Source of the DNA: an uncultured Anaerolineaceae bacterium
GTDB taxonomy: Bacteria > Chloroflexota > Limnocylindria > Limnocylindrales > CSP1-4
Assembly (NCBI GenBank): GCA_964518505.1
Contig: CAZFGT010000003.1
Coordinates: 26,589-90,588 of the forward strand
Length of the DNA stretch: 64,000 nucleotides
Direction of reading: 5' to 3'
Shown here: piece by piece, positions 1 to 16,398 of the stretch
Layout: every line of letters starts with the position of its first letter
Position numbering within the stretch: the stretch's first letter is position 1
Translations under genes and position numbers: made by a program
Notes under the pieces: model-generated
What the model was told of the DNA's origin: nothing
Seen by the model: only the letters and a program-made list of their open reading frames with translations
The model's database searches: none

Positions 1-437
1 TGACGCCGGTGTGGCAGGCGCTGGGCGCCCATCCCGGCGCCATCGACTTGAGCGGTTTGGGCGTGGGCCTGCTGATCGCCGTCCTCGTCGTGCCGCCCAT
101 CCTGACCGTGCTGCTGGCCCTGCCGTTCTGGATGCTCTTCACGAAGCTGCGCTTCTGGCAGGCCCTCGTGATCGGCTTCCTCTGCTTCAACGCCCTGGTC
201 GGCGCGGCGGTCCTCATCTGGGCCGCCTTCAGCTTCGACGCGGTGATGGGCCTGCTCTGGTTCCTGGGCAAGACCTACGTCTTCGTCGTGATCTTCGTGT
301 GGATGCGCGCCACCCTGCCGCGCGTGCGCATCGACCAGCTGATGGGCTTCGCCTGGAAGTGGCTCCTGCCGGCCTCGCTGGCCAACCTGTTCGTGACCGC
401 CCTGGCCATCCTGATCATCGCCCAGGTGCGCGGATGA
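1..437 (+). CDS. nuoH: NADH-quinone oxidoreductase subunit H (C-terminal part; 5' end lies outside the window)
   Basis: ORF 9..437 carries the NuoH/ND1 C-terminal motifs ([19 protein letters not shown]) and several TM helices. Its TGA stop overlaps the next ATG (ATGA at 434-437). Confidence 0.88.
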
Positions 438-1267
438 GCTTCGTGCCCGGGCTGGGGATCCTCAAGGGGATGGCCCTCACCTTCCGCAACATGCTGCGCC
501 TCAAGCCCACGGTGCAGTACCCCGAGGAGGTGTACCCAGTCGCGCCGCGCCACCGCGGCCGCCTCCTGCTGCTCTATGACGAGGCCGGGGCGCTGAAATG
601 CGAGACCTGCTTCCAGTGCGCCCAGGCGTGCCCCATCGAGTGCATCGACATGGGCGGAGTGGACACGCGCGACCGCTACCACGTCCACTGGGGCCCCGCC
701 GAGCAGTACGGCGAACGCCGCGAGGAGTCGGCCCTGCGCCGCTCCGGCCGGCCGGTCCCCGATCCCACCGCGACGCCCTTCGAGCCCATCGACACGGCCG
801 CCCTCGACGCCATCCTGGCCGACGAGGGCTACGACCCGCGCCACATGTTGGCCATCCTGGGCCGCACCCAGGACGCCTACGGCCACCTGTCGGTCGCGGC
901 GCTCAAGCACATCAGCCATGCCACCGGCGCGTGGTACGCCGAGGTATACGGCACGGCCACCTTCTACGACCAGCTGCGCATGGCCCCGGCCGGCGGCCAT
1001 GTGCTGGCCATCTGCCGCTGCCCCAGCTGTACCTTCCGCGGCGCGGGCCGCGTGCTCGCTGCCGCGGAGGCGGCGGCCTCGACGACCCTCGGCGGCAGCA
1101 GCCCCGAGGGCGCCGTGCGGCTCGAAGCGGCGGCCTGCCACGGCGGCTCGCCGGGGGCCGCCTACGTGACGCTCGACGGCGCCGTCCAGGCCGAGCCGAC
1201 GGCCAGGGGCATCACCGATCTGCTGACCCGCCTGCGGGCCGGCCATGCGCCGGCGGGACGGGCCTGA
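434..1267 (+). CDS. NuoI-like (single [4Fe-4S] motif) fused to a NuoE-like thioredoxin-fold [2Fe-2S] domain
   Basis: The N-terminus aligns by eye to NuoI/Nqo9 ([33 protein letters not shown]). Only the first CxxCxxCxxxCP motif is present; the second is absent. The C-terminal half matches NuoE/Nqo2 ([29 protein letters not shown]). Start ATG 434 overlaps the nuoH stop; stop 1265-1267 lies 1 nt before the nuoF ATG. Confidence 0.75.
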
Positions 1268-1268
1268 G

Positions 1269-2597
1269 ATGACCGCCCCCATCCTGCGCCAGCCGGCCGG
1301 CTGGCCGTCGGTGCTCCTCGCCCGAGCCGCCAAGCTCGACGCCCGGGCCGATCTGGCCGAGGCGGAGAAGCTGGGCGCCTGGGCCGCCTGGAAGGCGGCC
1401 GTCCGACAGGGCCCGGAGGCGGTGGTGCGGGCCGTCAGCGACGCCGGCCTGCGGGGCCGTGGCGGGGCCGGCTATCCCACGGCCGACAAGTGGCGCGCCG
1501 TGCGTGCGCAGCCCGCCCTGGTCCGCTACGCCGTGGCCAACGGCTACGAGGCCGATCCGGGTGTCGTCGTCGACCGCACGCTGATGGAAGCTGACCCCCA
1601 CGCCGTGCTGGAGGGCCTGGCCCTCGCCGCCTTTGCCGTCGGCGCCCAGGAGGCCTTCCTCGTCGTGCGCGCCGACGCGAGTGCCGCCATCGAGCGGCTC
1701 ACGGCGGCGCTCGAGGCGGCCGTGGCGGCGGGCTACCTGGGCGACGACGTGCTCGGCAGCGGCGTGACCGTGGAGATCCAGATCCGGCCGCTGGAGGGCG
1801 GCTTCGTGCTCGGCGAGGAGACCGTCCTGCTGAAGGCGCTGGAGGGCAAGCGGGGCGTGCCGGAGCAGCGGCCGCCGTACCCCTCTGAGCGTGGCCTTTT
1901 CGGGGCCCCCACCGCGGTCAACAACGTGGCCACCCTGGCGAGCGTGCCCTGGCTGCTCATCAACGGGCCGGCCACGTTCCGGGCCATCGGCGATCCGGAC
2001 TACCCGGGCACCGTCCTCGTGCAGCTCAGTGGCGCCGTCCATCGGCCGGGCGTGGCCGAGGTGCCCACCGGCACGCCCCTCGCCGTGGTCATCGACAAGG
2101 CCGGCGGCGGCGCGACCGGGCAGCTCAAGGCGGCCCTCGTGGGTGGCCCCTCGGGCGGCTTCCTGCCCCCCGACGCCCTGGCCACGCCCCTCGCGCCCGA
2201 CGCGCTCGAAGCGGCGGGGGCGATCATGGGCTCGGGCTCCCTGCTCGTGCTCGACGAGCACGCCTGCATCGTCGAGCTGGCGACGCTCATGGAGCGCTTC
2301 ATGAACGACGAGTCGTGCGGCAAATGCATCCCCTGCCGCATCGGCACGCGCCGCCTCACGGAGATCGGCGAGCGCTTCATGAGCGGCCGTCCGCGGCCCA
2401 CCGACACGGGCCTCCTGCTGGACCTGGCGGCCGATGTCCGGGATGGCTCGCTGTGCGGCCACGGCATCACGGCCCCCAATCCGCTCACATCCGGGATGCG
2501 ATACTTCGGCCAGGAATTCGACGACCACATCGTGCGCGGCCGGTGCGCCGCCGGGGTGTGCAAGCCCCTGCGCGTCGCCGCCGGAGCCGCCCGATGA
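1269..2597 (+). CDS. nuoF: NADH-quinone oxidoreductase subunit F (51 kDa, FMN/NADH-binding)
   Basis: GLRGRGGAGYPT FMN/NADH-site motif and ESCGKCIPCRIG [4Fe-4S] (N3) motif. The ORF frame holds a conserved length of about 440 aa. Start chosen at MTAPIL (ATG 1269), immediately after the upstream stop. Confidence 0.9.
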   Translation: MTAPILRQPAGWPSVLLARAAKLDARADLAEAEKLGAWAAWKAAVRQGPEAVVRAVSDAGLRGRGGAGYPTADKWRAVRAQPALVRYAVANGYEADPGVVVDRTLMEADPHAVLEGLALAAFAVGAQEAFLVVRADASAAIERLTAALEAAVAAGYLGDDVLGSGVTVEIQIRPLEGGFVLGEETVLLKALEGKRGVPEQRPPYPSERGLFGAPTAVNNVATLASVPWLLINGPATFRAIGDPDYPGTVLVQLSGAVHRPGVAEVPTGTPLAVVIDKAGGGATGQLKAALVGGPSGGFLPPDALATPLAPDALEAAGAIMGSGSLLVLDEHACIVELATLMERFMNDESCGKCIPCRIGTRRLTEIGERFMSGRPRPTDTGLLLDLAADVRDGSLCGHGITAPNPLTSGMRYFGQEFDDHIVRGRCAAGVCKPLRVAAGAAR

Positions 2598-2631
2598 GCC
2601 CGTCCCTCGCCAGCCAAGGACCTGTCCGCGC

Positions 2632-5199
2632 ATGACCGACCTGCTGCCTGCGCCGACCGCCGCCCAGGACTCGCTCGCCGACCGCCTGCTCGAGACGCAG
2701 GCGCCGCAGCGCCCCCAGGTCAGCCCCGCCATCACCATCGAGGTGGACGGCCGGCAGATCACCGGTCGCGAGGGCCAGACGATCCTGGAGCTGTGCCGCG
2801 ACAACGGCATCGAGATCCCCACCCTCTGCTACGAGCCCAAGCTGCCGGGCTTCGGGGCCTGCCGCATGTGCGTCGTGGACCTGGCCGGGGAGGATCAGCC
2901 GCCCATCAGCTGCTCGCGCGCCGCCGAGGCGGGCATGGTCGTGCAGACACAGACCGCGCGGATCCGCCAGCTGCGCAAGACCAACCTGGAGCTGATCTTC
3001 AGCGACCACAACGCCTACTGCCTGCCGCCGTGCCAGAACAAGTGCCCCAGCCACATCGACATCCCGGGCTTCCTGAAGGCCAACACGGAAGGCAACTTCG
3101 TCGAGTCGGCGCGCATCTTCAAGCGCACCATCCCCTTCCCCAGCATCCTGGGGCGGGTCTGCCCCGCGCCGTGCGAGGAGCACTGCCGCCGCGACGAGGT
3201 GGACGAGGCGATCGCCATCCGCGACAGCCACCGCTACGCCGGCGACCAGGTCCTCAAGGCGCTGGGCCGGGGCCAGAAGGCGCCCGTGCCGTTCGAGGTG
3301 CAGGCACCGTCGGGCAAGCGGGTGGCGGTCATCGGCTCGGGCCCGGCGGGCGCCTCGGCCGCCTACTACCTGGCCATCGCCGGCCACGAGGTGACGATCT
3401 TCGAGCGTGACCCGGCGCCCGGCGGCATGCTGCGCTACGGCATCCCGCAGTACCGCCTGCCCAAGGACGAGGTGCTGGCCGGGGAGTACGAGAGCCTCAC
3501 CGACCTGGGCATCCGCATGGTCTGCGACCGCGCCCTGGGCCGCGACTTCACCGTCGACGACCTGCAGAACCAGGGCTTCGATGCGGTCTGCGTGGCCATC
3601 GGCTGCTACGACACGAACAAGCTCGGCGTGCCCGGCGAGGACGCCCCCGACGTGCTCGACGGCCTGGAGTACCTGCGCATCGCCACGCTCGGTCTGCCCT
3701 ACCCCGGCCACAAGGGCAAGCGGGTGGTCGTCATCGGCGGCGGTTTCACCTCCATGGACTGCACCCGCACGTCGCTGCGGCAGGGCGCCAGTGAGGTCAC
3801 GCTCGTCTACCGCCGCGACATGAAGGAGATGTCGGCCGCCAACGAGGTCCACGAGGCCATCGAGGAGGGCGCGCGGGCCATCTTCCAGGCGGCCCCCACG
3901 CGCGTCCTGTCCGACGCCAAGGGCAAGGTCACGGGGGTGGAGTTCATCCGCATGCGGCTCGGCGCCCCGGACGAGAAGGGCCGCCGCCGACCGGAGCCGG
4001 TCGAGGGCACCGAGTTCACCATCCCCTGCGACCGCGTCCTGCTGGCCATCGGCCAGGGCCCCGACCTCACCTGGCTCGACCACGGCTCCGACGGCCTGGC
4101 CGCCTCCAAGCAGCGACGCCTGCAGGCCGACGCCGTCACCTTCGCCACCGGGCGGGCCGGCGTCTTCGCCACGGGCGACGTGCGCGTCGGCGCCACCACG
4201 GTCGTCCAGGCCGTGGGCGAGGGCCGCCGCTCGGCGTACGCCATCGATGCGTACCTCAAGGGCCACGACCTGGAGGCGATCCGGACGCGCCAGACGCTGG
4301 CCGAGCCGCAGCCCGAGTTCCTCTCCATCGTGCCCTACACCGACGAGCGCAAGGAACCGCGCCTGCGGCTGAAGTCGATGGCGCCCGAGGTGCGCAAGCA
4401 GAGCTACATCGAATACGAGATCCCTTACACGCAGCAGGAGGCGATGAGCGAGTCGGGGCGCTGCCTGCAGTGCACCTGCGAAGCGATCGGCTTCTGCGAT
4501 CTGCGCCGTCAGGGCATCGAGTACGGCACGACGCTGCCGACCCTGGAGCCGGCGCGGACGGGCCTGTCCTTCCGCTCGGTGACCGAGAACCGCTTCACCG
4601 GTCACAACCACGACTACATCCGCGACGACAGCCACGCCTTCATCCTGCGGGAGCCGTCGCGCTGCATCGACTGCGGCCGCTGCGCCAACGTGTGCAAGGA
4701 GGTCGTGGGGGCGGCCTGCTACGACTTCATGCGTACGGGCTTCGACACGCTCGTCACGACGCCCCTCGACATGAGCCTCAACACGACCCCCTGCGTGAGT
4801 TGCGGGCGGTGCGCCGAGACGTGCCCGACGGGCGCGCTGATGCCCAAGCCGCGGGTGCTGGAGCGCTACGACGTCGACGAGAGCCGCTGCATCCTGTGTG
4901 GCATCTGTGTCGATGCGTGCCCCTATGACGCGCTGCGCTGCGGGCCCGACTTCGAGCTCTCCCACGAGAGCCGGGCCGAGCCCCTGATCGACCTGCTGGC
5001 CATCAGCGCCATCGAGCACACCAGCGAGGTCACCTACATCCAGCGCGAACGCGACTGGCTGACGCGGGCCCAGGCGGCGGGCCGGTCGGTCGACGCCGGG
5101 CGCCTCCTGCCGGTCCTGCCGGCCAGCGTGCGCGGCAACGGCCACGGTAACGGGCTGGGCAACGGCCACGGCGACGGCCACGCGTCCGACGCCTCCTAG
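2632..5199 (+). CDS. NuoG-position subunit: NuoG-type [2Fe-2S] N-domain + GltD-like FAD/NAD(P)H flavoprotein + 2x[4Fe-4S] ferredoxin; lacks the molybdopterin-like domain
   Basis: The N-terminus (ITIEVDGRQI..LCYEPKL..GACRMCVV) matches the NuoG/Nqo3 ferredoxin domain. The middle matches the glutamate synthase small subunit (CLPPCQNKCP, GRVCPAPCEEHC, KRVAVIGSGPAG, KRVVVIGGGFTSMDC, GRRRPEP). The C-terminus has CIDCGRCANVC, CVSCGRCAETCP and CILCGICVDACP motifs and a His/Gly tail (GNGHGNGLGNGHGDGH). Start ATG 2632 is the first in-frame ATG after the nuoF stop at 2597. Confidence 0.8.
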   Translation: MTDLLPAPTAAQDSLADRLLETQAPQRPQVSPAITIEVDGRQITGREGQTILELCRDNGIEIPTLCYEPKLPGFGACRMCVVDLAGEDQPPISCSRAAEAGMVVQTQTARIRQLRKTNLELIFSDHNAYCLPPCQNKCPSHIDIPGFLKANTEGNFVESARIFKRTIPFPSILGRVCPAPCEEHCRRDEVDEAIAIRDSHRYAGDQVLKALGRGQKAPVPFEVQAPSGKRVAVIGSGPAGASAAYYLAIAGHEVTIFERDPAPGGMLRYGIPQYRLPKDEVLAGEYESLTDLGIRMVCDRALGRDFTVDDLQNQGFDAVCVAIGCYDTNKLGVPGEDAPDVLDGLEYLRIATLGLPYPGHKGKRVVVIGGGFTSMDCTRTSLRQGASEVTLVYRRDMKEMSAANEVHEAIEEGARAIFQAAPTRVLSDAKGKVTGVEFIRMRLGAPDEKGRRRPEPVEGTEFTIPCDRVLLAIGQGPDLTWLDHGSDGLAASKQRRLQADAVTFATGRAGVFATGDVRVGATTVVQAVGEGRRSAYAIDAYLKGHDLEAIRTRQTLAEPQPEFLSIVPYTDERKEPRLRLKSMAPEVRKQSYIEYEIPYTQQEAMSESGRCLQCTCEAIGFCDLRRQGIEYGTTLPTLEPARTGLSFRSVTENRFTGHNHDYIRDDSHAFILREPSRCIDCGRCANVCKEVVGAACYDFMRTGFDTLVTTPLDMSLNTTPCVSCGRCAETCPTGALMPKPRVLERYDVDESRCILCGICVDACPYDALRCGPDFELSHESRAEPLIDLLAISAIEHTSEVTYIQRERDWLTRAQAAGRSVDAGRLLPVLPASVRGNGHGNGLGNGHGDGHASDAS

Positions 5200-5205
5200 G
5201 TCGCC

Positions 5206-5760
5206 ATGCTGAGCATCCCCTCCACGATCCCGCTGCTCGGCTGGACCTGGAACGACCTGCTGTTCCTGATCCTGGCCGGCGGCCTCCTGGGCTCGGCCCT
5301 CATGGTCGTCCTGGGGCGGGACATCATCCGCTGCGGCCTGTGGATGATCGTCTGCTTCCTGTTCCTGGCCGGCCTCTACGTGCTGCTGGGCAATCCGCTC
5401 GTGGCCGGCGCGCAGGTGCTGGTCTACATCGGCGCCATCAGCGTGCTGATCCTCTTCGCCGTCATGCTCACCCAGTCCAAGGCCGGCCCGGCGCGCCTGG
5501 TCTTCCACCACCAGGCGTGGGCCGCCGCCCTGGCCGCGATCGGCCTGGCCGTGGTGCTGGTGATCGTCGACGGGGCCACCAGCTGGCCGCTGGCCCAGCC
5601 GGACCGCACCGCGACGGCGACCACCGACGTCGCCTCGAAGCTCTTCAGTGACTTTGTGCTGCCGTTCGAGGTGGTCAGCGTGCTCCTGCTGGCGGCCGTC
5701 ATCGGCGGCGTCTTCCTGGCCAAGAAAGATGACGCGCCTCGCTCCGACAGCGACATATGA
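5206..5760 (+). CDS. nuoJ: NADH-quinone oxidoreductase subunit J
   Basis: 184-aa polytopic protein with a NuoJ/ND6-like profile (…[16 protein letters not shown]…), positioned before nuoK with an ATGA overlap. Confidence 0.8.
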
Positions 5761-6068
5761 GCCAGAACCTCGACGCCTACCTCGTCCTCTCGGCGCTCCT
5801 CTTCTGTATCGGCGTCTTCGGCTTCCTGGCCCGGCGCAACGCGATCTCCATGCTCATGTGCATCGAGCTGATGCTCAACGCGGTGAACCTGGCCATCCTG
5901 GCCTTCGGCGCGTTCGTGCCGTCGCTGCACGGCAACGCCGCGGTCATCGCCCTCATCGTCATGGCCGTGGCGGCCGGCGAGGCGACCGTGGGCCTGGCCA
6001 TCGTCATCGCCATCTACCGCAACCGGCGCACGCCGCTGGTCGATGAGTACGCCCAGATGCGTGACTGA
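5757..6068 (+). CDS. nuoK: NADH-quinone oxidoreductase subunit K
   Basis: 103 aa with three TM helices and conserved NuoK/ND4L motifs ([12 protein letters not shown]…ELMLNAVNL…EATVGLAIV). Confidence 0.9.
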
Positions 6069-6071
6069 GCG

Positions 6072-8036
6072 GTGACCCAGCTGACGGTCCTGCTCCTGCT
6101 CCTGCCGGTGGCCGGCTTCGCCATCACGGCACTCGTCGGGCGACGCCTTGGGGCGAGCTCGTGGGTGCCTGCCGTGGCGGCCATCGTGGCCACCTGGGCC
6201 GTGGCCATGGTCGTCGTCTACGGCCAGCTGAGCGGCGGCAACGGCGACACGGGCCTGCAGGTCACGCTCTACCGCTGGATCCCGGCCGGCGCCTTCACCA
6301 TCGACTTCAACCTGGCGGTGGACAACCTGACCGCGGCGCTGCTCATCGTGGTCACCACGGTAGGCATGCTGGTCCACGTCTACTCGATCGGCTACATGGC
6401 CCACGACCCGGGCCGGTGGCGCTTCTTCGCCTACCTCAACTTCTTCATGTTCAGCATGCTGCTGCTGGTCCTGGCGGGCAACTTCCTGCTGCTGTTCGCG
6501 GCGTGGGAGCTGGTCGGCCTGTCGAGCTACCTGCTCATCGGCTTCTGGTACCGGCGGCACAGCGCGGCCCTGGCAGCCAAGAAGGCCTTCCTGGTCAACC
6601 GCGTCGGCGACGTCGGCTTCGCCCTCGGCATCATGGCCGTCTGGTCGACCGTGGGGACGCTCAACTTCACCGATGTGTTCAACCTCCTGCCGGCCAAGCT
6701 GGCCAGCGGCGCCATCCAGCCCTGGGAGATGACCGGCATCGCCCTGCTGCTCTTCTGCGGGGCGGTCGGCAAGAGCGCCCAGTTCCCCCTCCACGTCTGG
6801 CTGCCCGACGCGATGGAGGGCCCCACGCCCGTGAGCGCCCTGATCCATGCGGCGACCATGGTCAACGCCGGCGTCTACTTCGTGGCCCGGGCCAACCCCA
6901 TCTTCAGCCAGAGCGGGTCGGCCATGGTCATCGTCGCCGCGATCGGCATCTTCACGGCCCTGCTGGCCGCCTCGATCGCCCTGACCCAGACCGACATCAA
7001 GCGCGTCCTGGCCTACTCCACGCTGAGCCAGCTGGGCTACATGTTCGCGGCCCTCGGCGTGGGCGCCTACGTGGCCGCCATCTTCCATCTCATGGCCCAC
7101 GGCTTCTTCAAGGGCCTGCTGTTCCTCGATTCGGGCTCGGTCATCCACGGCGTGCACGACGAGCAGGACATGAACCGCATGGGCGGCCTGTGGCGGAAGC
7201 TGCCGGTGACCCACGCCACGATGCTCGTGGGCACCCTGGCCATCGCCGGCATCCCGCCGCTGGCAGGCTTCTTCAGCAAGGATGAGATCCTGGGCCAGAG
7301 CTTCAAGGCCGGCTTCCTGTGGGTCTGGATCGTGGGCATCGGGGTGGCCGGCCTGACCGCCTTCTACATGTTCCGGCTCATGGGCAAGACGTTCTACGGG
7401 CCCAGCCACGTCGACCCGGCCGTGGAACCGCAGGTCCACGAGTCGCCGCGCTCGATGACGGTGCCGCTCGTCCTGCTGGCCATCCCGTCGGCCCTGCTCG
7501 GCCTGGGTCTGGGCCTGCCGTTCGGCGCCGGCGCGATCTCCAGCTGGCTCGATCCGGTCTTCGCCCACGCGGAGCAGACCCTGGGCCGCAGCCCCGAGTC
7601 GTTCAGCCTCTTCGGCCTCGACGGCGCCCTGATCCTCATCAGCGTCACCGTGGCGGCCGTGGGCACGATCGCCGGCATGCGGCTGTTCGGCTTCCACTGG
7701 CCGTTCACGGCGCGCGAGACGGCGCCTCTGCCCGATCGGGTGGCGGCCATCACCGCCCGCCTGCGGCCGCTCTACACGGCGTCGTTCCACAAGTGGTGGT
7801 TCGACGACCTCAACGACCTGATCTTCGTGCGCTTCGGCAGCCGCCTGGCCAACGGGGCGTGGTGGTTCGACCGCACGGTCGTCGACGGCACCGTCAACGG
7901 CACCGGGCGCTTCATCCAGCGCACCGGTCGCGAGGTGCGCCAGATCCAGACCGGCCACGTCCAGAACTACGCCCTGGGCATCGCCCTCGGCCTGCTCGTG
8001 GTGGCCGGCGGCTACCTGCTCCTGGCGGGCCGCTGA
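6072..8036 (+). CDS. nuoL: NADH-quinone oxidoreductase subunit L
   Basis: 654-aa antiporter-like subunit (WEL/GLSSYLLIGFW, long C-terminal extension). GTG start 4 nt after the nuoK stop. Confidence 0.9.
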   Translation: MTQLTVLLLLLPVAGFAITALVGRRLGASSWVPAVAAIVATWAVAMVVVYGQLSGGNGDTGLQVTLYRWIPAGAFTIDFNLAVDNLTAALLIVVTTVGMLVHVYSIGYMAHDPGRWRFFAYLNFFMFSMLLLVLAGNFLLLFAAWELVGLSSYLLIGFWYRRHSAALAAKKAFLVNRVGDVGFALGIMAVWSTVGTLNFTDVFNLLPAKLASGAIQPWEMTGIALLLFCGAVGKSAQFPLHVWLPDAMEGPTPVSALIHAATMVNAGVYFVARANPIFSQSGSAMVIVAAIGIFTALLAASIALTQTDIKRVLAYSTLSQLGYMFAALGVGAYVAAIFHLMAHGFFKGLLFLDSGSVIHGVHDEQDMNRMGGLWRKLPVTHATMLVGTLAIAGIPPLAGFFSKDEILGQSFKAGFLWVWIVGIGVAGLTAFYMFRLMGKTFYGPSHVDPAVEPQVHESPRSMTVPLVLLAIPSALLGLGLGLPFGAGAISSWLDPVFAHAEQTLGRSPESFSLFGLDGALILISVTVAAVGTIAGMRLFGFHWPFTARETAPLPDRVAAITARLRPLYTASFHKWWFDDLNDLIFVRFGSRLANGAWWFDRTVVDGTVNGTGRFIQRTGREVRQIQTGHVQNYALGIALGLLVVAGGYLLLAGR

Positions 8037-9574
8037 TGGCCGGCCTGCCCCTCCTCGCGCTGGTCGTCTTCAGCCCGCTCGTCGGCGCGCTGCTCATCGC
8101 CTTCATGCCGCGCGACCGCGTGGTGCTCATCCGCCGGCTGGCCCTGGCCACGGCCCTTGTCAGCTTCGGCTTCTCGCTGCTCCTGCTGATCGGCTTCAAC
8201 GGCGCCGCGTCGGATGCCGGGGGCTTCCGCTTCGTCGAGACGGCGACGTGGGTACCCGCCTTCGGCATCCAGTTCAAGCTGGGCGTGGACGGCATCAGCC
8301 TGCTGCTGGTGGTGCTCACCACGCTGCTCACGTGGATCAGCATCCTGGCCAGCTTCGGCCCCATCCGGGAGCGGGTGAAGGAGTACATGATCTCCTTCCT
8401 CATCCTCGAGGTGGGCATGCTGGGCGTCTTCCTGGCGCTCGACCTCTTCCTCTTCTACGTCTTCTGGGAAGTGGTCCTCGTGCCGATGTACCTCATCATC
8501 GGCATCTGGGGCGGGCCCAACCGCATCTACGCCACGATCAAGTTCGTCCTCTACACGCTGGTCGGCTCGCTGCTCATGCTGGTGGCCATCCTGGCCACCG
8601 CGTTCGCCTTCGCCTCCGCCCACGGCGGCGACTTCACGGGCGCCTTCGACTACGAGCAGCTGCGCGGCTTCCCCTTCACCGACGTGCTCCAGACCGGCGC
8701 CTTCCTGGCCTTCTTCCTGGCCTTCGCCATCAAGGTGCCGATGGTGCCCTTCCACACATGGCTGCCCGACGCGCACGTGGAGGCGCCCACCGCCGGCTCG
8801 GTGATCCTGGCCGGCGTCCTGCTCAAGCTCGGCGCCTATGGCTTCATCCGCTTCTCGCTGCCCCTCTTCCCGCACGCGGCGCAGTCGTTCGCGGTGCCCA
8901 TCGTGGTGCTGTCGCTGATCGCCATCATCTATGGCGCGATCGTGGCCCTGGTCCAGACCGACCTGAAGAAGCTCATCGCTTACTCGTCGGTGAGCCACAT
9001 GGGCTTCGTGACCCTGGGCATCTTCATCTTCCAGCAGCAGGGCCTCCAGGGCGCGGTGCTCCAGATGGTCAACCACGGGCTCATCACGGGCGCCCTCTTC
9101 CTGCTGGTCGGCGTCATCTACGAGCGCGGCCATGACCGCACCATCGCGCGGATGGGTGGCCTGGCCGGTGCGACACCGGTGTACGCCGTGGCCTTCGGCT
9201 TCTTCATGCTGGCCAGCGTCGGCCTGCCCGGCCTGGCCGGCTTCGTGGGTGAGTTCCTGGTCTTCCAGGGCTCGTTCGTGGCCTGGCCCCTGTACGCGGC
9301 CATCGCCGTGCTGGTCATGACGCTGGGGGCGGCCTACCTGCTGTGGCTGTACCAGCGGATGTTCACCGGCGAGCTGTCCGACTTCTTCCGCGGCCTGGGC
9401 GACCACCTGACCGACCTGAGCCCGGTGGAGGTCATGACGCTCGTGCCCCTGGGCACGCTGGTGCTCCTGCTGGGCCTCTTCCCGGGGCTCGCCCTTGGCG
9501 TCATCCAGGGACCCACGGACAGCGTCCTCAACGCCGTCCATGGCACCGTGACCGCCCTGGCGGGCACCCCGTGA
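8036..9574 (+). CDS. nuoM: NADH-quinone oxidoreductase subunit M
   Basis: 512-aa NuoM/ND4-like antiporter subunit (FFLAFAIKVPMVPFHTWLPDAHVEAPT). ATG overlaps the nuoL TGA. Confidence 0.9.
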   Translation: MAGLPLLALVVFSPLVGALLIAFMPRDRVVLIRRLALATALVSFGFSLLLLIGFNGAASDAGGFRFVETATWVPAFGIQFKLGVDGISLLLVVLTTLLTWISILASFGPIRERVKEYMISFLILEVGMLGVFLALDLFLFYVFWEVVLVPMYLIIGIWGGPNRIYATIKFVLYTLVGSLLMLVAILATAFAFASAHGGDFTGAFDYEQLRGFPFTDVLQTGAFLAFFLAFAIKVPMVPFHTWLPDAHVEAPTAGSVILAGVLLKLGAYGFIRFSLPLFPHAAQSFAVPIVVLSLIAIIYGAIVALVQTDLKKLIAYSSVSHMGFVTLGIFIFQQQGLQGAVLQMVNHGLITGALFLLVGVIYERGHDRTIARMGGLAGATPVYAVAFGFFMLASVGLPGLAGFVGEFLVFQGSFVAWPLYAAIAVLVMTLGAAYLLWLYQRMFTGELSDFFRGLGDHLTDLSPVEVMTLVPLGTLVLLLGLFPGLALGVIQGPTDSVLNAVHGTVTALAGTP

Positions 9575-11058
9575 CCGGGCCCGAGCTGGCGGCCATCGCG
9601 CCGTTCGGCTACGTCGTCGCGCTGGCGGTGCTGGTCATCCTGGCCGACATCGTGCGGCCCGGCGACGAGCGCGTGACGATCGTCATCGGGACGGTGGGGA
9701 CCCTCGTGGGACTCGTCCTCGTGGTGGCCGTCGGGCTCGGCGGGACGGTGCAGCCCGTCTTCGGCGGCGCCTACCAGCTGGATCCGCTGACGACGTTCCT
9801 GGACATGCTCTTCCTGGCCATCGCGTTCCTGACCATCCTCTTCTCGCCCGACTACCTGCGGCCGCGTCACTACCCCCTGCCCGAGTACGTGGCGACCCTC
9901 CTGTTCGCCATCAGCGGCGCCATGCTCATCTCCGCCGCCCGTGACCTGTTGGTCCTGTTCCTTGGCCTGGAGCTCCTGGTACTGCCCGGCTACATGCTCG
10001 TGGCCTACGCCAAGCGGGACGGCCTGGCCACCGAGGGCGCCATCAAGTACTTCCTGCTCGGCTCGTTCTCCTCGGCCATCTTCCTCTTCGGCCTGGCCTT
10101 CACCTGGGGCTACACCGGCACGACGAGCGTGGCCGGCGTGGCGTCACACCTCCAGCAGGTGGTGACCAGCGGGCAGGTGCCGGCCGCCGGGTTGCTGATG
10201 GGCCTCGCGCTGATGACCACCGGGGTGGCCTTCAAGATCGCCGCGGTGCCCTTCCACTACTGGACACCGGATGCGTACCAGGGCTCGCCCACGCCGGTCA
10301 CCGGCTACCTCTCGGTGGGGCCCAAGATCGCCGCCTTCGCCCTCATCCTGCGCCTCTTCGCCGAGGCCCTGGCCCCCATGCGCGCCGACTGGGTCGGCGT
10401 GGTCGTGGTGCTGGCCGCCCTGACCATGACGCTGGGCAACCTGGTGGCCCTGACGCAGGACAACATCAAGCGGATGCTGGCCTACTCGTCGATCGCCCAC
10501 ACCGGCTACATCCTCGTCGGCCTGGCCGCCTTCGCCGGTGCGCCGGCGGGTTCCAGCGCGGCCTCGGCCGGCATCGCCGGCGTGCTCTTCTACAGCGCCG
10601 CCTACACCTTCATGAACCTGGGCGCGTTCGCCGTGGTGGCCGCCCTCCAGGGCCGGCCCGGCGTGACCAGCCAGATCGCCACGTTCGCCGGCCTGGGGCG
10701 CCGCGCCCCGCTGGCCGGCGCGCTGATGCTGCTGTTCCTGCTGTCGCTGACGGGGATCCCGCCCACAGCTGGCTTCTTCGCCAAGGCGTACGTCATCGAG
10801 GCCGCCCTGCAGTCGGGCGGGCTGGTGCCCTGGCTGGCCGTGATCGCCGTCGTCAACGCGGCGATGGCCGCCTTCTACTACCTGCGCGTGGTGGTGGTGA
10901 TGTACATGCAGGAGCCGGCGGCCGACGCCCAGCCGGTCACCGACAGCCGACCGATGCGCCTGGGCCTCCTCATCGCGGCCGTGGCCACAGTGCTCATCGG
11001 CGTGGTCCCCGGCCTGCTCATCCCGATGGCCCAGGCCGCCGCCGCGGCCATCCAGTAG
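9571..11058 (+). CDS. nuoN: NADH-quinone oxidoreductase subunit N
   Basis: 495-aa NuoN/ND2-like subunit (AAVPFHYWTPDAYQGSPTPVT). GTG start overlaps the nuoM stop (GTGA). Confidence 0.9.
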   Translation: MTGPELAAIAPFGYVVALAVLVILADIVRPGDERVTIVIGTVGTLVGLVLVVAVGLGGTVQPVFGGAYQLDPLTTFLDMLFLAIAFLTILFSPDYLRPRHYPLPEYVATLLFAISGAMLISAARDLLVLFLGLELLVLPGYMLVAYAKRDGLATEGAIKYFLLGSFSSAIFLFGLAFTWGYTGTTSVAGVASHLQQVVTSGQVPAAGLLMGLALMTTGVAFKIAAVPFHYWTPDAYQGSPTPVTGYLSVGPKIAAFALILRLFAEALAPMRADWVGVVVVLAALTMTLGNLVALTQDNIKRMLAYSSIAHTGYILVGLAAFAGAPAGSSAASAGIAGVLFYSAAYTFMNLGAFAVVAALQGRPGVTSQIATFAGLGRRAPLAGALMLLFLLSLTGIPPTAGFFAKAYVIEAALQSGGLVPWLAVIAVVNAAMAAFYYLRVVVVMYMQEPAADAQPVTDSRPMRLGLLIAAVATVLIGVVPGLLIPMAQAAAAAIQ

Positions 11059-11905
11059 GCCAGGTCGCCAGCCGCCACAGCAGGCGCGCCGCCTCGGCAG
11101 GGCTGGCGAGGACGGCGTCGGCGGCGGCCATGATCTCGGGCACCTGGTCGGCCCGCCCGTGGACCCCCACAGCAAGGGTCCGCAAACGGCCGCTGTCCCG
11201 GGCGGCATCCAGCACGCGGAAGGCGGCCGCGTCACTGACGTCATCGCCAAGCATCACGGCGAAGCCCGGGCGCACCTCGTCGAGCAGCGTGGCCACCGCC
11301 TGCGCCTTGGTCGTGGCGCCCGGCGGACGCAGCTCCAGCATGCGCATGCCAAGCTGCCGCTCGAAGCGGCCTTCGGGGTCCAGGCGGTCGACGGCGGCCC
11401 GGACGCGGACGGCGGCCGCGGCGAGGTCCGGCGCGCCGCGGAAGTGGAGGGCCAGGGCCGGCGGCTTGCGCTCCACGACCAGCCACGCCTCCGGCAGGAG
11501 CCGTGGGACGCCCATCGCGAGGCCTTCGGCACCCTCGTCGTAGGCCTCGAACCCCGGCCGCCGCACGGTCTGCAGGCGGCGGGAGGCGGCACCACGCGCG
11601 AGGCGGCCGCGCTCCATCCCGTGGTTGCCCAGGTAATCCGCCCCACCGACGCGCACGCGACCGGCCAGGTCTGCGGAGGCGCGCCCGGACAGCAGGACGA
11701 CGGTCGTGGCCGGCCGCGCCACCAGGCGACGCAGCGCCCGTTGCGCCAGCGGCACGATGGTGGCGCCCCACGGATCCATCTGCAGGGGACTCAGCGTGCC
11801 GTCGAAATCGGAGACGACCAGCCAGGGCGTGGCATGGAGGGCGTCCCCGGCGAGCTCGAGCGCGCCATCGACGGAGAGCCGGCGCCCCTCGACGCCGTCG
11901 CTCAC
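11018..11905 (-). CDS. otsB: HAD-superfamily phosphatase, trehalose-6-phosphate phosphatase-like
   Basis: DFDGTLSP motif I, LLSGR, YLGNHGME and GDDVSD motifs typical of OtsB-type HAD phosphatases. Its 3' end overlaps the nuoN 3' end by about 40 nt (convergent). Confidence 0.55.
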   Translation of the reverse strand: MSDGVEGRRLSVDGALELAGDALHATPWLVVSDFDGTLSPLQMDPWGATIVPLAQRALRRLVARPATTVVLLSGRASADLAGRVRVGGADYLGNHGMERGRLARGAASRRLQTVRRPGFEAYDEGAEGLAMGVPRLLPEAWLVVERKPPALALHFRGAPDLAAAAVRVRAAVDRLDPEGRFERQLGMRMLELRPPGATTKAQAVATLLDEVRPGFAVMLGDDVSDAAAFRVLDAARDSGRLRTLAVGVHGRADQVPEIMAAADAVLASPAEAARLLWRLATWPTGWPRRRPGPSG

Positions 11906-12600
11906 GGGGCGAAGCTGGCGGCGCCCGGCAGGATCGACTTGAGCCCGGTGGCGAAGCCGGGGATGGTCCCCTCGCCGAAGAGGACGTAGCGGATGACACC
12001 GCCCTTGTCGATGAAGTAGTGCATCGGCAGCACCAGCGCGTTGAAGGTCTGCTGCGCCGTGCCGTCGGCGTCGATGCCCATGGTGGCCACGAAGCCGGTC
12101 TGGGCCACGAGCGAGGCGGCCGTGGCGGCGTCCTCGCGCACGTCCACGGCGACGATCTGCAGCTGGCTGCCGTACTGGGCCGCCGCCGCATCCATCAGCG
12201 ACATCTCATCGCGGCAGCTGGGGCACCAGCTCGCCGTGAAGGCCAGCCAGACCGGTTTGCCGCGCAGACTCGCGAGGTCGACGGTGCCCCCGCCGACCCG
12301 TGCCACCGTGAGCCCGGGCGCCTGCTGGCCCACCTTGAGGCCGACCGCGATGGTGGGCGTCGGCGCCGTGGTCGGGCCGTTGGAGGAGGGCGTCGGGCCG
12401 CCGCCAGCCGGGGTCGCCGTAGCGCTCGGCGTCGCCGAGGGGCTGGCGTTCACCGACGGGCTCGGCGACGGGGAAGCGAGGGCCAGCGACGCGGGCGGCG
12501 GCTCGAGCTTGGTGGAGCCCAGGTTCATGGCGATGGCGCCGAGCACCAGGGCTCCCACGACGAGGCCCGCGATCAGGCCCACCAGGGTGGGGATACGCAT
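11902..12600 (-). CDS. Membrane-anchored TlpA/ResA-like thiol-disulfide oxidoreductase (thioredoxin fold)
   Basis: N-terminal TM helix, Pro/Ser/Thr/Ala-rich linker, and a WCPSC active site within a thioredoxin-like domain. Confidence 0.7.
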   Translation of the reverse strand: MRIPTLVGLIAGLVVGALVLGAIAMNLGSTKLEPPPASLALASPSPSPSVNASPSATPSATATPAGGGPTPSSNGPTTAPTPTIAVGLKVGQQAPGLTVARVGGGTVDLASLRGKPVWLAFTASWCPSCRDEMSLMDAAAAQYGSQLQIVAVDVREDAATAASLVAQTGFVATMGIDADGTAQQTFNALVLPMHYFIDKGGVIRYVLFGEGTIPGFATGLKSILPGAASFAP

Positions 12601-12676
12601 GCCGGCGCAGTCTACGTCCTCGCCTCGGTCGTCCGTCGCCGGCCCTCGCGCGGAGGCCTGCTAGCATCGCCCGTCG

Positions 12677-13411
12677 ATGCGCCAAGCTCGCCCCCTCGTC
12701 CAGCGCCTCGTCTCCGCCGTCATCACCGCGGCGGGCGTCGTCCTGCTCGCGGCCGGACTGCTGACCGTGGCCGCGCCCGCGACCGGCGCCGGGCCCACCA
12801 GCTCACCGACCGGCCTCGCCGTGGTGTCGCCTTCACCAGGCGGCAGCGGCGTCCATCCCTCGGGCGGCCCGTCAGCCAGTCCGTCCACCGCGCCCGGCCA
12901 CGCGGCGCCGACCCGCATCGTCATCGCCGCCATGAAGATCGACCTGCCGGTCCTCTCGTACCTGTATCCGGGGGGCCAGAACTTCCCGCTCTGCAACGTG
13001 GCCCAGTACTACGATGGCGCGGGCGCCAACTTCGCCGGCACCAACATCGGCCTGCCGGGCAACGATGGTCGGAGTGTCTACATCTACGCCCACGCCAGGA
13101 CGGGCATGTTCCTGCCGTTACTGACCGCCTCGCTCACGGCGAACGGCGACAGCATGCTGGGCGACGAGGTCCAGGTGTACACCGACGACGACCTCGTCTA
13201 CACGTACGACATCTCCACGGTGAAACGCCACAGCGAGGACTTCTCGATCGCCTCGTCCGTGGCCGCCGACGCGCAGCAGCTCGTCCTCCAGACCAGCGAA
13301 GGGCCCAGCCCGACCCTGCCCAAGCTCCAGGTGGCAGCCATCTTCGTGAGCGTGGCCCCGGCCGACCACGCGGCCGCCCATCCGGCGCCCCACCCGGTGA
13401 CCTGCAGCTAG
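12677..13411 (+). CDS. Sortase-family protein (class F-like); the canonical TLxTC Cys appears replaced (LVLQTS)
   Basis: N-terminal TM anchor. A sortase β-barrel signature (RIVIAAMKIDLPV, NVAQY…GLPG, YIYAHAR with the conserved His) is present. LVLQTSEGP sits where LTLxTC is expected. This is a by-eye alignment. Confidence 0.5.
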   Translation: MRQARPLVQRLVSAVITAAGVVLLAAGLLTVAAPATGAGPTSSPTGLAVVSPSPGGSGVHPSGGPSASPSTAPGHAAPTRIVIAAMKIDLPVLSYLYPGGQNFPLCNVAQYYDGAGANFAGTNIGLPGNDGRSVYIYAHARTGMFLPLLTASLTANGDSMLGDEVQVYTDDDLVYTYDISTVKRHSEDFSIASSVAADAQQLVLQTSEGPSPTLPKLQVAAIFVSVAPADHAAAHPAPHPVTCS

Positions 13412-13454
13412 GACGCAGGGCCGGCCACGTTCCGAGCGTTACCGAGGCGCCCGA

Positions 13455-13595
13455 TGAACCCAAAAGGTGGCTAAGGGCGGCGATAAGGGCCTTCCTTCAC
13501 CAGGATGAACCTCATAGGTTCGAGTCGACCCCGGAAACGCCCGAATCGGGGTCAACTGCGGCCGCAGGTTCGTCGCTGGCCACCCTTTGGGTTCA
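13455..13595. repeat. Long-range inverted repeat (17-bp arms, 107-nt spacer) enclosing an internal GC hairpin; candidate structured RNA or MITE-like element between convergent genes
   Basis: Arms TGAACCCAAAAGGTGGC (13455-13471) and GCCACCCTTTGGGTTCA (13579-13595), with one mismatch that is a G-U pair on the minus-strand transcript. The internal hairpin is GACCCCG…CGGGGTC (13525-13551). Confidence 0.3.
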
Positions 13596-13750
13596 CGCTG
13601 ACGCGTGGGATGTCGGGACGGCTGCAGTGACGCTCGCAGGGGAGCGTGACGATGCCACTTGTCGCAACGACGATCACGGCCGACGGATCCGCCGCGCCCA
13701 CGCAGCGACCCGCGCTATCACGACTGAGCGACACCCGGGCTCGCTGGCCG

Positions 13751-15331
13751 TCAGGCCGCGGGATCAGGCCGCCGCGCCGCGAGCCAGAGGGTCGGCAGGA
13801 GCGCGGCGAGCATGACGGCCGCGGCCACGATGAACAGGCCTTCCAGGATGCCGGCGGCCTGACCGGCGGCCCACCGTTCCAGGGCGTCCACCACGAACGG
13901 GTCGTCGAGCGGCCGCCCACGAAGGGTCGCCGGCAGGACGGCGTCGCGCGCGGCCGCGTCGGTCAGGACGATCGAGAGGGACTGGATGCGGTTCGAGCCG
14001 AGGGCCGTCAGGATGGCCACGCCCACGCCCATGCCGGCGAAGCGCGCCTGGGTCACCAGGCCCGAGGCGAGGCCGTAGGCGTCCCGGCCCAGGGCCTCGA
14101 CAGCCGTGACGGCGTACGGCGTGACCGTCAGGCCGAAACCCAGCCCGAAAAGGCCCAGCGCGAGCGCCACCATCGTCGTCGCGGAGGTCGCGTCCTCGCG
14201 GCCCACCAACACCAGCCCGGCTGCCCCGATGACGATCCCGACCGCGGCCACGACCCGCCCCCCGACGCGGCGCACGATGAGGCCCGACGCCAGCGCCCCG
14301 ATGGCCATGGTCAGCGCCAGCGAGCCAAGCACGAGCTGCTGGTCGGAAGGACCGCCGTAGCGGACCCGGTCGACGAAGACGGCCCCGCCGACGAGAGCGG
14401 TCGCCAGCGCGTATCCGGTGAGACCACTCACCAGGACGGCGCCGCGCAGGCGCACATCCCGCAGGAGGCCGCGAGGCAGGAACGGCTCAGCCGCGCGCCG
14501 CTCGACGACGATCCCCAGCACGAGGGCCGCGCAGGCCACCGCGGCCGGGACGACCGCCCCGCCCGGTCCACCGGGCGCGTCCGACCAGCCCAGCCAGGTG
14601 AGGGCGAGGAGGCCTGCCGCGAAGGCCACCGTGAGGGCCACGCCACCGACCATGTCGAAACGCATCGACCTCCGGTCCACCGTCGGCCAGGCGGCGCCAG
14701 CGGCCCACACGTACAACGCGGCCAGGCCGGCCACCGGCGCGGCCAGGTAGAAGATCCAGCGCCACGCCGGCACGAGCAGATGAGGCGCGGCCGTCCCCTG
14801 CAGGCCTGACGCAGCCACCTGGGCCCCGAGATCCAGGTGCTGCAGCACCCAGGCGCCAAGGAAGGGGCCGGCGGCCATGCCCAGGAACGTCGCGCCCCCG
14901 ACCACCCCGAGGGCCCGGGCGCGCGCCGGGCCGTCGAACAGCCGGCTTGCCCCGAATGTCGCCAGCGGCACGATGGCGCCCGCGCCGAGGCCCTGCACGA
15001 GACGCGCCCCGATGAGGACGGCCAGGGTCGGGGCGGCGCCGGCGACCAGCGAGGCGACCGCGAACAGGCCGAGCGCCAGCGTCAGCGGCGGCACCAGCCC
15101 GTAGCGGTCGGCGGCCCGTCCGGCGATGGGCATGACGGCGATGCTCGTGACGAAGAAGCCGTCGACGATCCACGACGCCTGGCGCAGCTCCTGCCAGCTC
15201 GCCAGGTCCTGCACGATCGAGGGCAGCGCTGTGGCCGTCACCAGCAGCTCGGCCCCGGCCAGGCCGGCGGCGACGCTCAGGATGGCCAGCAGCGACCAGG
15301 CGGCGCGACGACTCACGGCCCGGGCCCTCAC
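13751..15331 (-). CDS. MFS transporter (DHA2-like, ~14 TMS drug/metabolite:H+ antiporter)
   Basis: About 14 hydrophobic segments and MFS motifs (GRAADRYG, LVQGLGAGAIVP). A GTG start at 15331 is assumed. The ORF extension beyond it is antisense to arsR. Confidence 0.75.
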   Translation of the reverse strand: MRARAVSRRAAWSLLAILSVAAGLAGAELLVTATALPSIVQDLASWQELRQASWIVDGFFVTSIAVMPIAGRAADRYGLVPPLTLALGLFAVASLVAGAAPTLAVLIGARLVQGLGAGAIVPLATFGASRLFDGPARARALGVVGGATFLGMAAGPFLGAWVLQHLDLGAQVAASGLQGTAAPHLLVPAWRWIFYLAAPVAGLAALYVWAAGAAWPTVDRRSMRFDMVGGVALTVAFAAGLLALTWLGWSDAPGGPGGAVVPAAVACAALVLGIVVERRAAEPFLPRGLLRDVRLRGAVLVSGLTGYALATALVGGAVFVDRVRYGGPSDQQLVLGSLALTMAIGALASGLIVRRVGGRVVAAVGIVIGAAGLVLVGREDATSATTMVALALGLFGLGFGLTVTPYAVTAVEALGRDAYGLASGLVTQARFAGMGVGVAILTALGSNRIQSLSIVLTDAAARDAVLPATLRGRPLDDPFVVDALERWAAGQAAGILEGLFIVAAAVMLAALLPTLWLAARRPDPAA

Positions 15332-15359
15332 GGCCGGCAGTGTACGCGGCGGCTCCCCG

Positions 15360-15406: not shown

Positions 15407-15427
15407 CACGAGAGCGCACCCGCCCTG

Positions 15428-16392: not shown

Positions 16393-16398
16393 GAGCAC

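Follow-up and report, generated by a model that had tools for sequence, protein, structure and literature searches.

The complex I operon at the start of a 64,000-nucleotide (nt) stretch of DNA from an uncultured soil bacterium of the Limnocylindrales in the Chloroflexota (contig CAZFGT010000003.1 of assembly GCA_964518505.1; the whole stretch is called the window below) raises the question of what kind of module delivers electrons to the enzyme and what has become of its NuoI subunit. Nine co-directional genes were located on the plus strand at window positions 1 to 11058, in the order nuoH–(NuoI N-half::NuoE-like)–NuoF-like–(2Fe-2S::GltD::dicluster::NuoI C-half)–nuoJKLMN. All nine were supported as family members by Pfam or NCBIfam hidden Markov models (HMM; E values from 1e-14 to 1e-213), which makes these open reading frames (ORFs) Nuo-related by that measure. 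The G+C content of the window is about 72%. We consider it probable that the locus encodes a complex I in which an Nfn/Stn-type cassette of three genes was inserted into nuoI and now feeds electrons from NADH and NADPH to quinone through a split NuoI.

Division of NuoI between two proteins

The first cassette gene (434..1267, plus strand; TIGR01971 and PF01257) encodes a protein of 277 amino acids (aa), which the first-pass annotation had described as an I/E fusion. NuoI and NuoE-like parts are indeed fused in it, but the NuoI part is only an N-terminal half with one CxxCxxCxxxCP motif: residues 12 to 78 correspond to positions 1 to 66 of the 121 positions of the TIGR01971 NuoI profile. The half (residues 1 to 88; 434..697, plus strand) consists of an N-terminal helix, a 'TVQYPEE' region and the motif formed by C56, C59, C62 and C66. 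It was aligned to the NuoI/TYKY chains of solved complex I structures, for example to residues 5 to 91 of Mycobacterium smegmatis 8e9g_I. A conserved linker and a NuoE-like thioredoxin-type [2Fe-2S] domain follow.

The other half was found at the end of the third cassette protein, an NfnA/StnC-like protein of 855 aa recognized by alignment to NfnA/StnC (2632..5199, plus strand; the 'G-like' protein below). Residues 737 to 790 (4840..5001, plus strand) contain a third CxxCxxCxxxCP motif (C753, C756, C759 and C763), which is an orphan because the first two motifs of the protein form a complete dicluster domain, as in StnC, NfnA and HydA. Residues 741 to 783 correspond to TIGR01971 positions 71 to 113 of 121 (E=1.5e-14), and TYKY/NuoI chains matched this half with E values of about 1e-14; its sequence is what we take to be a typical second NuoI motif plus tail. 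As the C-half stands at the end of the G-like protein, the E-, F- and G-like genes lie inside nuoI, and not between nuoI and nuoJ as had been proposed.

The two pieces cover complementary ranges of Arabidopsis 7aqr_I, namely residues 76 to 144 and 151 to 196. Joined in silico, they gave one contiguous NuoI domain that aligned with residues 17 to 138 of the Paracoccus denitrificans chain, 28 to 129 of the Escherichia coli chain and 5 to 130 of the M. smegmatis chain. The joined sequence scored about 76 bits (E of about 1e-20), while the separate halves reached 38 and 55 bits with the Paracoccus chain. No single ORF with both NuoI CxxCxxCxxxCP motifs was found; the two motifs are on two proteins, and all eight Cys residues are jointly present. 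The Cys residues of the N-half were invariant in 17 aligned I/E homologues, and Cys residues were likewise invariant in 22 of the G-like homologues. Exactly three CxxCxxCxxxC motifs were counted in every one of 60 complete G-like homologues, with the NuoI C-half conserved at more than 90%.

In a 2x[4Fe-4S] ferredoxin, three of the Cys ligands of each cluster belong to one motif and the remaining one to the second motif. Because the ligands of each cluster come from both motifs, a pair of orphan motifs carried by separate proteins can be understood only if the halves pair, and we infer that the halves would reassemble into one ferredoxin fold carrying clusters N6a and N6b. When the I/E protein was modeled alone with AlphaFold2 (AF2), the NuoI half and the linker had predicted local distance difference test (pLDDT) values of 26 to 42, which fits a half-domain unable to fold alone and a shallow alignment equally well. 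An origin of the N-terminal piece from a POR-delta-type protein was also considered and was rejected for the window, as residues 9 to 55 match NuoI-specific profile positions including 'TVQYPEE'.

Domain structure and origin of the cassette

The same three solved complexes gave the best matches for each of the cassette proteins: NfnABC of Caldicellulosiruptor saccharolyticus (Csac; 9BOV), an NfnABC of archaeal origin (9N5U) and StnABC of Sporomusa ovata (8OH5). Judged by these comparisons, the cassette is of the NfnABC/StnABC (Bfu) type and not NuoEFG. The earlier description of the input module as a rearranged NuoEFG did not hold, since the Nfn/Stn scores are higher for all three proteins, but its view that the soluble input proteins are domain-shuffled agrees with their domain content. 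It is reasonable to infer that they form an input arm of distinct structure.

In the G-like protein, residues 34 to 762 align with residues 4 to 698 of Csac NfnA (9bov_A, E=7e-158), residues 34 to 764 with residues 4 to 700 of StnC (8oh5_C), and a further contiguous alignment was obtained with residues 3 to 703 of 9n5u_A; E values across the three chains ranged from 1e-141 to 1e-158. Scores were 530, 478 and 475 bits against the Nfn/Stn chains and at most 86 bits against NuoG, the latter for the N-terminus only. The NuoG model TIGR01973 gave 88 bits against a cut-off of 470, and of the features of a canonical NuoG the protein shows just the [2Fe-2S] and ferredoxin-like domains. A regular-expression search of the protein for the His-ligated N5 motif HxxxCxxCxxxxxC found none, and there was no molybdopterin-like domain among its listed Pfam and NCBIfam matches.

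The protein begins with a [2Fe-2S] ferredoxin domain (residues 33 to 108; 2728..2955, plus strand; PF13510 Fer2_4, E=4.9e-19), for which C66, C77, C80 and C94 are proposed as ligands from the spacing C-x10-C-x2-C-x13-C. A GltD/NfnB-like domain for flavin adenine dinucleotide (FAD) and NAD(P)H, with two [4Fe-4S] sites, follows at residues 130 to 545 (3019..4266, plus strand; PF14691 and PF07992). It covers positions 3 to 631 of the 657 positions of profile PRK12814 (E=7e-167) and aligns with NfnB 4ylf_B and with GltD. The motifs GSGPAG, GIPQYRLP, GGGFTSMD and VYRRD are conserved with StnC, and by this likeness the GltD domain would use NADPH. The structure of StnC was solved with FAD and NADPH bound (PMC10482914). 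Next come a CxxCxCxxxxxC motif (C611, C614, C616 and C622; 4462..4497, plus strand), which is aligned in NfnA and StnC and invariant in 22 homologues, and a complete 2x[4Fe-4S] domain with motifs at C678 and C721 (4642..4839, plus strand; PF22117 Fer4_Nqo3 and PF12838) that is equivalent to those of StnC, HydA and Nqo3. The alignment to StnC ends at about residue 700, where the FdhF-like domain of StnC starts; the remaining 90 to 110 residues of the G-like protein are the NuoI C-half and its tail.

Two further features were noticed at this end of the protein. A conserved 'ERDWLxRAxAxGR...RLLPMLP' segment was seen after the NuoI C-half (window 5040..5196), and the protein ends in a His/Gly-rich low-complexity tail (GNGHGNGLGNGHGDGH) whose length varies among genomes. 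Annotation pipelines had named the cassette proteins 'NAD(P)H-dependent oxidoreductase subunit E', 'FAD-dependent oxidoreductase' and 'formate dehydrogenase major subunit'.

The second cassette gene (1269..2597, plus strand) encodes a NuoF/BfuB-core-like flavoprotein of 442 aa (the F-like protein), in which PF01512, PF10531 and PF10589 all scored above their gathering thresholds. It has a site for flavin mononucleotide (FMN) and NADH, an SLBB domain and one [4Fe-4S] (N3/B1) motif, with GRGGAGYP and CGKCIPC both present. The NuoF model TIGR01959 gave 362 bits against a cut-off of 559; scores were 386, 381 and 378 bits against the Nfn/Stn chains and at most 291 bits against any NuoF. The protein covers only residues 128 to 527 of the 584 residues of StnB and 117 to 526 of Csac NfnB. 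The accessory domains of BfuB, an N-terminal 2Fe-2S/Zn domain and a C-terminal 2x[4Fe-4S] domain, were absent both from its Pfam matches and from its alignment to structure chains. Non-bifurcating Bfu homologues lack the B2 to B5 sites, and deletion of B3/B4 abolishes bifurcation (PMC9304861, PMC11829005). Since the F-like subunit lacks the BfuB domains with the B2 to B5 sites that are required in bifurcating enzymes, the enzyme of the window is most likely a non-bifurcating NAD(P)H:quinone oxidoreductase.

The NuoE-like domain occupies residues 112 to 273 of the I/E protein (767..1252, plus strand), of which residues 125 to 267 match PF01257 (E=5.5e-22). All NuoE models of NCBIfam scored the protein below their cut-offs. 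Its best solved relatives were NfnC (9bov_C, 66 bits), StnA (8oh5_A, 65 bits) and the third Nfn/Stn chain (60 bits), compared with at most 50 bits for NuoE. Residues 119 to 272 were modeled confidently by AF2 (pLDDT 71 to 94). The N1a ligands of a canonical NuoE follow the pattern Cx4C...Cx3C, which was retained in the NuoE-like domains of two of the variants described below, the Thermoleophilia type and L087. The domain of the window has the non-canonical pattern CxCxxC...C, with C194-x-C196-xx-C199...C235 (window 1013..1150, residues 194 to 239), and the extra C196 was invariant in the 17 aligned Limnocylindria I/E proteins. The cluster may have an alternative ligand set or may have been lost.

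Organization of the operon and neighboring genes

As had been stated, the membrane arm (H, J, K, L, M, N) is of the ordinary kind. Only the 3' part of nuoH, the last 144 codons (3..437, plus strand; PF00146, E=1.3e-14, and NuoH models of NCBIfam), lies in the window, with its start upstream. Downstream of the cassette are nuoJ (5206..5760; PF00499, E=1.2e-33), nuoK (5757..6068; PF00420, E=2.2e-25, with NF004320 above cut-off), nuoL (6072..8036; NF005141, 711 bits against a cut-off of 556), nuoM (8036..9574; TIGR01972, 583 against 264) and nuoN (9571..11058; TIGR01770, 416 against 333), all on the plus strand. NuoK, NuoL, NuoM and NuoN thus reach NCBIfam cut-offs. The overlapping start and stop codons mentioned in the first-pass annotation were found at four junctions: by 4 nt at H/IE (ATGA), J/K (ATGA) and M/N (GTGA), and by 1 nt at L/M (TGATG). 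The remaining genes are separated by 1 nt (IE/F), 34 nt (F/G-like), 6 nt (G-like/J) and 3 nt (K/L).

Nineteen metagenome contigs encode a protein identical to the 277-aa protein at every residue. L001, the longest of the stretches retrieved from them, is more than 99.5% identical to the window at the amino acid level in all genes. It carries nuoA-B-C-D-H directly upstream of the cassette. The window piece of NuoH corresponds to residues 317 to 460 of the 460-aa NuoH of L001. The core complex I set A, B, C, D, H, J, K, L, M and N is therefore present in one operon in the window and L001 taken together, and the complete operon has 13 genes: nuoA-B-C-D-H, the three cassette genes and nuoJ-K-L-M-N. 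No nuoE, nuoF, nuoG or nuoI was found directly upstream in L001, where a canonical nuoEFG had been considered; no further nuo-like genes were found in the remaining 53 kb of the window, and neither an intact nuoI nor another nuo paralogue was detected within the window or the upstream stretch.

Several peculiarities of the surrounding genes were recorded. NuoH is unusually long (460 aa compared with 321 to 375 aa in the other variants; window 3..437, L001 8622..10004). It is extended at the N-terminus and has about 45 residues inserted directly ahead of the last conserved block; part of this insertion is encoded by the first 130 nt or so of the window. NuoB (L001 6124..6822, 232 aa) is likewise extended at its N-terminus, by about 70 residues, and its profile match begins at residue 71. 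An ORF of 326 aa lies directly upstream of nuoA and outside the window (L001 4674..5654); it was kept in 39 of 86 loci compared and had no match in Pfam or NCBIfam. Downstream, a trehalose-phosphatase-like gene on the minus strand (11018..11905; PF02358 in the source contig) is convergent with nuoN and overlaps its 3' end by 41 nt.

Distribution and conservation

The arrangement was searched for in one genome per species, with matches confirmed by tblastn, and at least 543 matches were obtained. The best 80 of these were nearly all labelled Chloroflexota, Chloroflexia or Ca. Limnocylindria, and included CSP1-4 and GWC2_73_18. The gene order (ORF326)-A-B-C-D-H-IE-F-G-J-K-L-M-N was present in all 80 loci as far as each contig reaches, so that the non-canonical, co-directional order nuoH-(I/E)-F-(G-like)-J-K-L-M-N reported for the window was confirmed there and proved to be general in this set. 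An assembly error or a pseudogene was considered unlikely and rejected: no ORF is disrupted, and these 80 independent loci, which come from many studies, all share one order. Among the matches listed, the closest relatives of the window were Limnocylindrales-type metagenome-assembled genomes (MAGs) with 96 to 99% identity. The I/E architecture was found at full length in more than 120 protein clusters (60 to 98% identity), several of them named Candidatus Limnocylindrales, and a G-like protein with at least 80% identity in 120 protein clusters.

Two of the 80 loci, L008 and L083, are labelled Candidatus Sulfotelmatobacter or Acidobacteriota although they carry the Limnocylindria-type operon. 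These labels are probably mis-binning or labelling errors, because the two are 92% and 56% identical members of the Limnocylindria-type family.

Variant architectures

Other forms of the cassette were found by an exhaustive profile-free search of 1.84 billion representatives, followed by context look-ups. A Thermoleophilia-type family comprised 1192 proteins at E<=1e-20, one of which was named Thermoleophilia bacterium. Its operons (L093 to L095; in L095 at 6255..20762) have the order A-B-C-D-H-[I_N::E]-[full BfuB]-[Fer2-GltD-dicluster::I_C, 824 aa]-J-K-L-M-N, in which I_N and I_C are the NuoI halves. Here BfuB has 636 to 643 aa and both accessory domains (N-terminal 2Fe-2S-like and C-terminal 2x[4Fe-4S]). 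The window and L095 are 39 to 51% identical in the membrane arm, 44 to 45% in F and G and 27% in I/E, a pattern compatible with an ancient common origin of the complete operon and also with its transfer in one piece.

In L087 (359..11571, G+C 49%) the order is H-[I_N::E]-[2Fe-2S::NuoF::GltD, 1048 aa]-[HoxU-like::I_C, 265 aa]-J-K-L-M-N, and the HoxU-like protein keeps the His-type cluster motif. L091 (6481..14281, from the Chloroflexi MAG GCA_016190715.1) has nuoA-D,H-(I_N::truncated E)-F-(G::I_C), with an I_N::E protein of 215 aa that has no 2Fe-2S domain. No nuoJ-N genes are adjacent downstream in L091, where flavin reductase and POR genes were found instead; its membrane pump genes are elsewhere or absent. 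Finally, the metagenome contigs L089 (1..7796) and L090 (G+C 70%) carry PorD-PorA-(NuoI-like half-ferredoxin::NuoE)-(BfuB)-(StnC-like::half-ferredoxin::PorB), with a full BfuB of 634 aa and a last protein of 1060 aa. From its gene content this cluster is a putative soluble version, in which the cassette bracketed by half-ferredoxins is placed on a 2-oxoacid (pyruvate) oxidoreductase. The two orphan halves co-occurred in every variant context (L093 to L095, L087, L091 and L089/L090), on the E-protein and on the last cassette protein.

Proposed function and alternatives

We propose that the ancestor of this enzyme was an 11-subunit complex without an N-module, and that a three-gene cassette of the NfnABC/StnABC type was inserted into the part of nuoI that encodes the loop separating the two [4Fe-4S] motifs. 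The N-half of NuoI would thereby have been fused to the first cassette protein (NuoE/BfuC-like), and the C-half to the end of the last one (NfnA/StnC-like), from which the FdhF-like domain was presumably removed. The reassembled NuoI would occupy its normal place on NuoB/NuoD, and its covalent links to the two ends of the input module would anchor that module.

An electron path can be proposed by homology with the solved StnABC and NfnABC structures. Electrons from NADH would pass to FMN on the F-like subunit and on to its [4Fe-4S] cluster, and those from NADPH to FAD on the GltD domain and then through two [4Fe-4S] clusters, the CxxCxC cluster and the [2Fe-2S] cluster. The two routes would meet at the dicluster domain, from where electrons would flow through the split NuoI (N6a/N6b) to N2 and quinone, driving proton pumping by the ordinary membrane arm. 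In StnABC the path runs FAD-C7-C6-C5-C4-C3-B1-FMN, and the C2/C1 branch toward the FdhF-like domain is a non-functional remnant (PMC10482914). By analogy, this dead-end branch may be the outlet to N6a/N6b, N2 and quinone in the present enzyme, where the NuoI half is attached.

Some observations weigh against this proposal. The AF2 model of the 855-aa G-like protein, made with 22 close homologues, was uninformative (mean pLDDT 41.6). NADPH specificity is read from motif conservation with StnC and GltD only. The canonical fourth ligand of the NuoE-like cluster (position 239) is replaced by Ser, Ala, Gly or other residues in all 17 aligned Limnocylindria members. The Thermoleophilia-type relative keeps a full BfuB, so the ancestral and possibly the current chemistry may involve ferredoxin. 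Finally, a direct wire between the NADH site and the NADPH site would also permit uncoupled transhydrogenation, which needs explanation.

The GltD domain could instead be an output, making the complex an energy-linked transhydrogenase or NADP+ reductase. NADPH would then be formed either with electrons drawn back from quinol at the expense of the proton motive force or by transfer from NADH to NADP+ along the Fe-S wire. Complex I is reversible, the NADPH-type 'YRR' motif is conserved, and the wire of StnABC runs reversibly between FAD/NADPH and FMN/NAD (PMC10482914). However, nothing in the sequence gates the direction, and NADPH oxidation is the simpler default because transfer from NADPH to NAD+ is downhill at the usual cellular ratios. 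We regard an output function as unlikely.

Another possibility is a bifurcating or confurcating device like 'Nuo-Bfu', in which NAD(P)H and reduced ferredoxin would together reduce menaquinone, or quinone reduction would drive an uphill reaction. Confurcation was predicted for Nuo-Bfu by Schut et al. (PMC9304861). The derivation of the cassette from the Bfu family and the complete BfuB of the Thermoleophilia-type relatives speak for such a device. Against it, the F-like subunit lacks every BfuB accessory domain, which is the published mark of non-bifurcating homologues, and the ligands of the NuoE-like cluster are altered. Limnocylindria, moreover, are mainly aerobic heterotrophs. This explanation appears quite unlikely for the window.

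The cassette might also be an independent soluble Nfn-like enzyme encoded in the nuo operon, with the half-ferredoxins as inert relics and with a complex I that has no NuoI or a NuoI encoded elsewhere. Soluble relatives, NfnABC and StnABC, do exist. Yet both halves with their eight Cys residues are invariant or more than 90% conserved where other residues diverge to about 57% identity, the halves are found together in each of five different architectures, none of the 80 loci departs from the gene order, and translation is coupled at the H/IE junction. Clusters N6a and N6b are also indispensable for electron transfer to N2, and an independent enzyme is very improbable. Equally hard to believe is a canonical NuoEFG module whose genes were merely relocated and fused in an ordinary NADH:quinone complex I: the NuoE, NuoF and NuoG family models do match the three proteins, though below their cut-offs, and the membrane arm is ordinary, but all three proteins score clearly better against Nfn/Stn/Hyd (Bfu) than against NuoE/F/G, the G-like protein lacks the N5 motif, has no molybdopterin-like domain among its listed matches and contains a GltD domain of 415 residues, and NuoI is split.

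Comparison with described systems

The complex I with an inserted Nfn/Stn-type cassette that we favor resembles several described systems in part. Like NfnABC and StnABC (9BOV, 8OH5 and 9N5U), it has three E/F/G-like subunits, and its large subunit shares with NfnA/StnC the order [2Fe-2S], GltD, CxxCxC and 2x[4Fe-4S] on one polypeptide over about 700 aligned residues. NfnABC and StnABC, in contrast, are soluble enzymes with an FdhF-like domain at the end of the large subunit and with a BfuB that has the B2 to B5 sites for ferredoxin reduction. In Stn the FdhF-like domain mediates tetramerization. In the window half a NuoI replaces this domain, the accessory domains of BfuB are missing and the genes are embedded in a complex I operon. 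With canonical complex I it shares ordinary NuoA-D, H and J-N, as well as a NuoI with eight Cys residues that is supplied jointly by the two pieces. It differs in having no NuoG-type subunit, a NuoI divided over two polypeptides, an additional site for a flavin (FAD) and a nucleotide, and the gene order A-D, H, cassette, J-N.

Schut et al. (2022) defined the Bfu family and predicted Nuo-Bfu, Mbh-Bfu and Por-Bfu complexes (PMC9304861). Nuo-Bfu was assigned to Deferribacteres, Proteobacteria, Planctomycetes and Nitrospirae, with Geobacter among its predicted carriers; it has BfuABC in the position of nuoEFG within a 14-gene nuoA-N cluster, a full BfuB and predicted use of ferredoxin; in the Mbh-Bfu of Dehalococcoides the Bfu genes stand in the middle of the membrane-complex cluster, with an extra flavin site in one subunit (PMC9304861). 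Nuo-Bfu and Mbh-Bfu share with the enzyme proposed for the window the idea of a Bfu-type module that feeds electrons to a complex-I-like proton-pumping membrane module. The window departs from Nuo-Bfu as defined by its cassette inside nuoI, an Nfn-type BfuA and a reduced BfuB. The words NuoI and GltD are absent from that paper, and no members from Limnocylindria or Actinobacteria are reported in it (PMC9304861). L089 and L090 correspond to the predicted Por-Bfu (PMC9304861) and carry the same cassette and half-ferredoxin bracket on a pyruvate oxidoreductase; unlike the window system they are soluble, have a full BfuB and lack the N-terminal membrane-contact region of NuoI.

Mbx-like operons in which a GltD-like flavoprotein replaces NuoI were described by Degli Esposti in 2015 (PMC4758237). 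They too place a GltD-type NAD(P)H flavoprotein on a complex-I-like membrane module at the NuoI position. There, however, the flavoprotein takes the place of NuoI altogether, within a sulfur or ferredoxin system of the Mbx/Mrp type, whereas in the window NuoI is kept but split, and an FMN/NADH subunit is present as well. The arrangement does not appear in a survey of complex I variants from 2025. Targeted searches of the literature, with incomplete coverage, yielded no description of a split NuoI, a nuoI-nuoE fusion, a Nuo-Bfu/Nfn-Bfu hybrid, an Nfn-type (GltD) module on complex I or a Limnocylindria complex I. This suggests that, while Bfu modules on complex-I-like complexes had been predicted already, the split NuoI with an Nfn-type module is apparently new.

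Implications

Taken with the variants, the locus allows a wider and more tentative interpretation, which as a whole we hold to be possible but short of likely. The half-NuoI-bracketed Bfu/Nfn module would be a portable 'plug' that was docked on complex I in Limnocylindria, in Thermoleophilia-type Actinomycetota and in the lineage with 49% G+C, and on a pyruvate oxidoreductase. Its complex I form would be a proton-pumping enzyme that respires NADPH directly, its variants with full BfuB would be bifurcating, energy-conserving machines in which NADH, NADPH, ferredoxin and quinone are all coupled, and its arrival would mean that the ancestral 11-subunit complex gained an N-module a second time, independently. 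The Thermoleophilia-type operons are candidates to encode a membrane-bound complex I that bifurcates or confurcates, a kind of enzyme that is still hypothetical.

Complex I is usually taught to have gained its NADH module once, as NuoEFG. The enzyme of the window would represent a separate solution for the N-module, in which a Bfu-family module was spliced into the NuoI ferredoxin itself, and it would be a natural example of a 2x[4Fe-4S] ferredoxin domain built from two polypeptides. It also suggests a proton-pumping enzyme that oxidizes NADPH as well as NADH; to our knowledge, no canonical complex I oxidizes NADPH efficiently. Limnocylindria (Ellin6529) are abundant in soil and freshwater. 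In this group the design is fixed; it occurs in the Thermoleophilia type too, with relatives thus in at least one further phylum, and it may matter for the amount of energy that common soil bacteria conserve per NAD(P)H.

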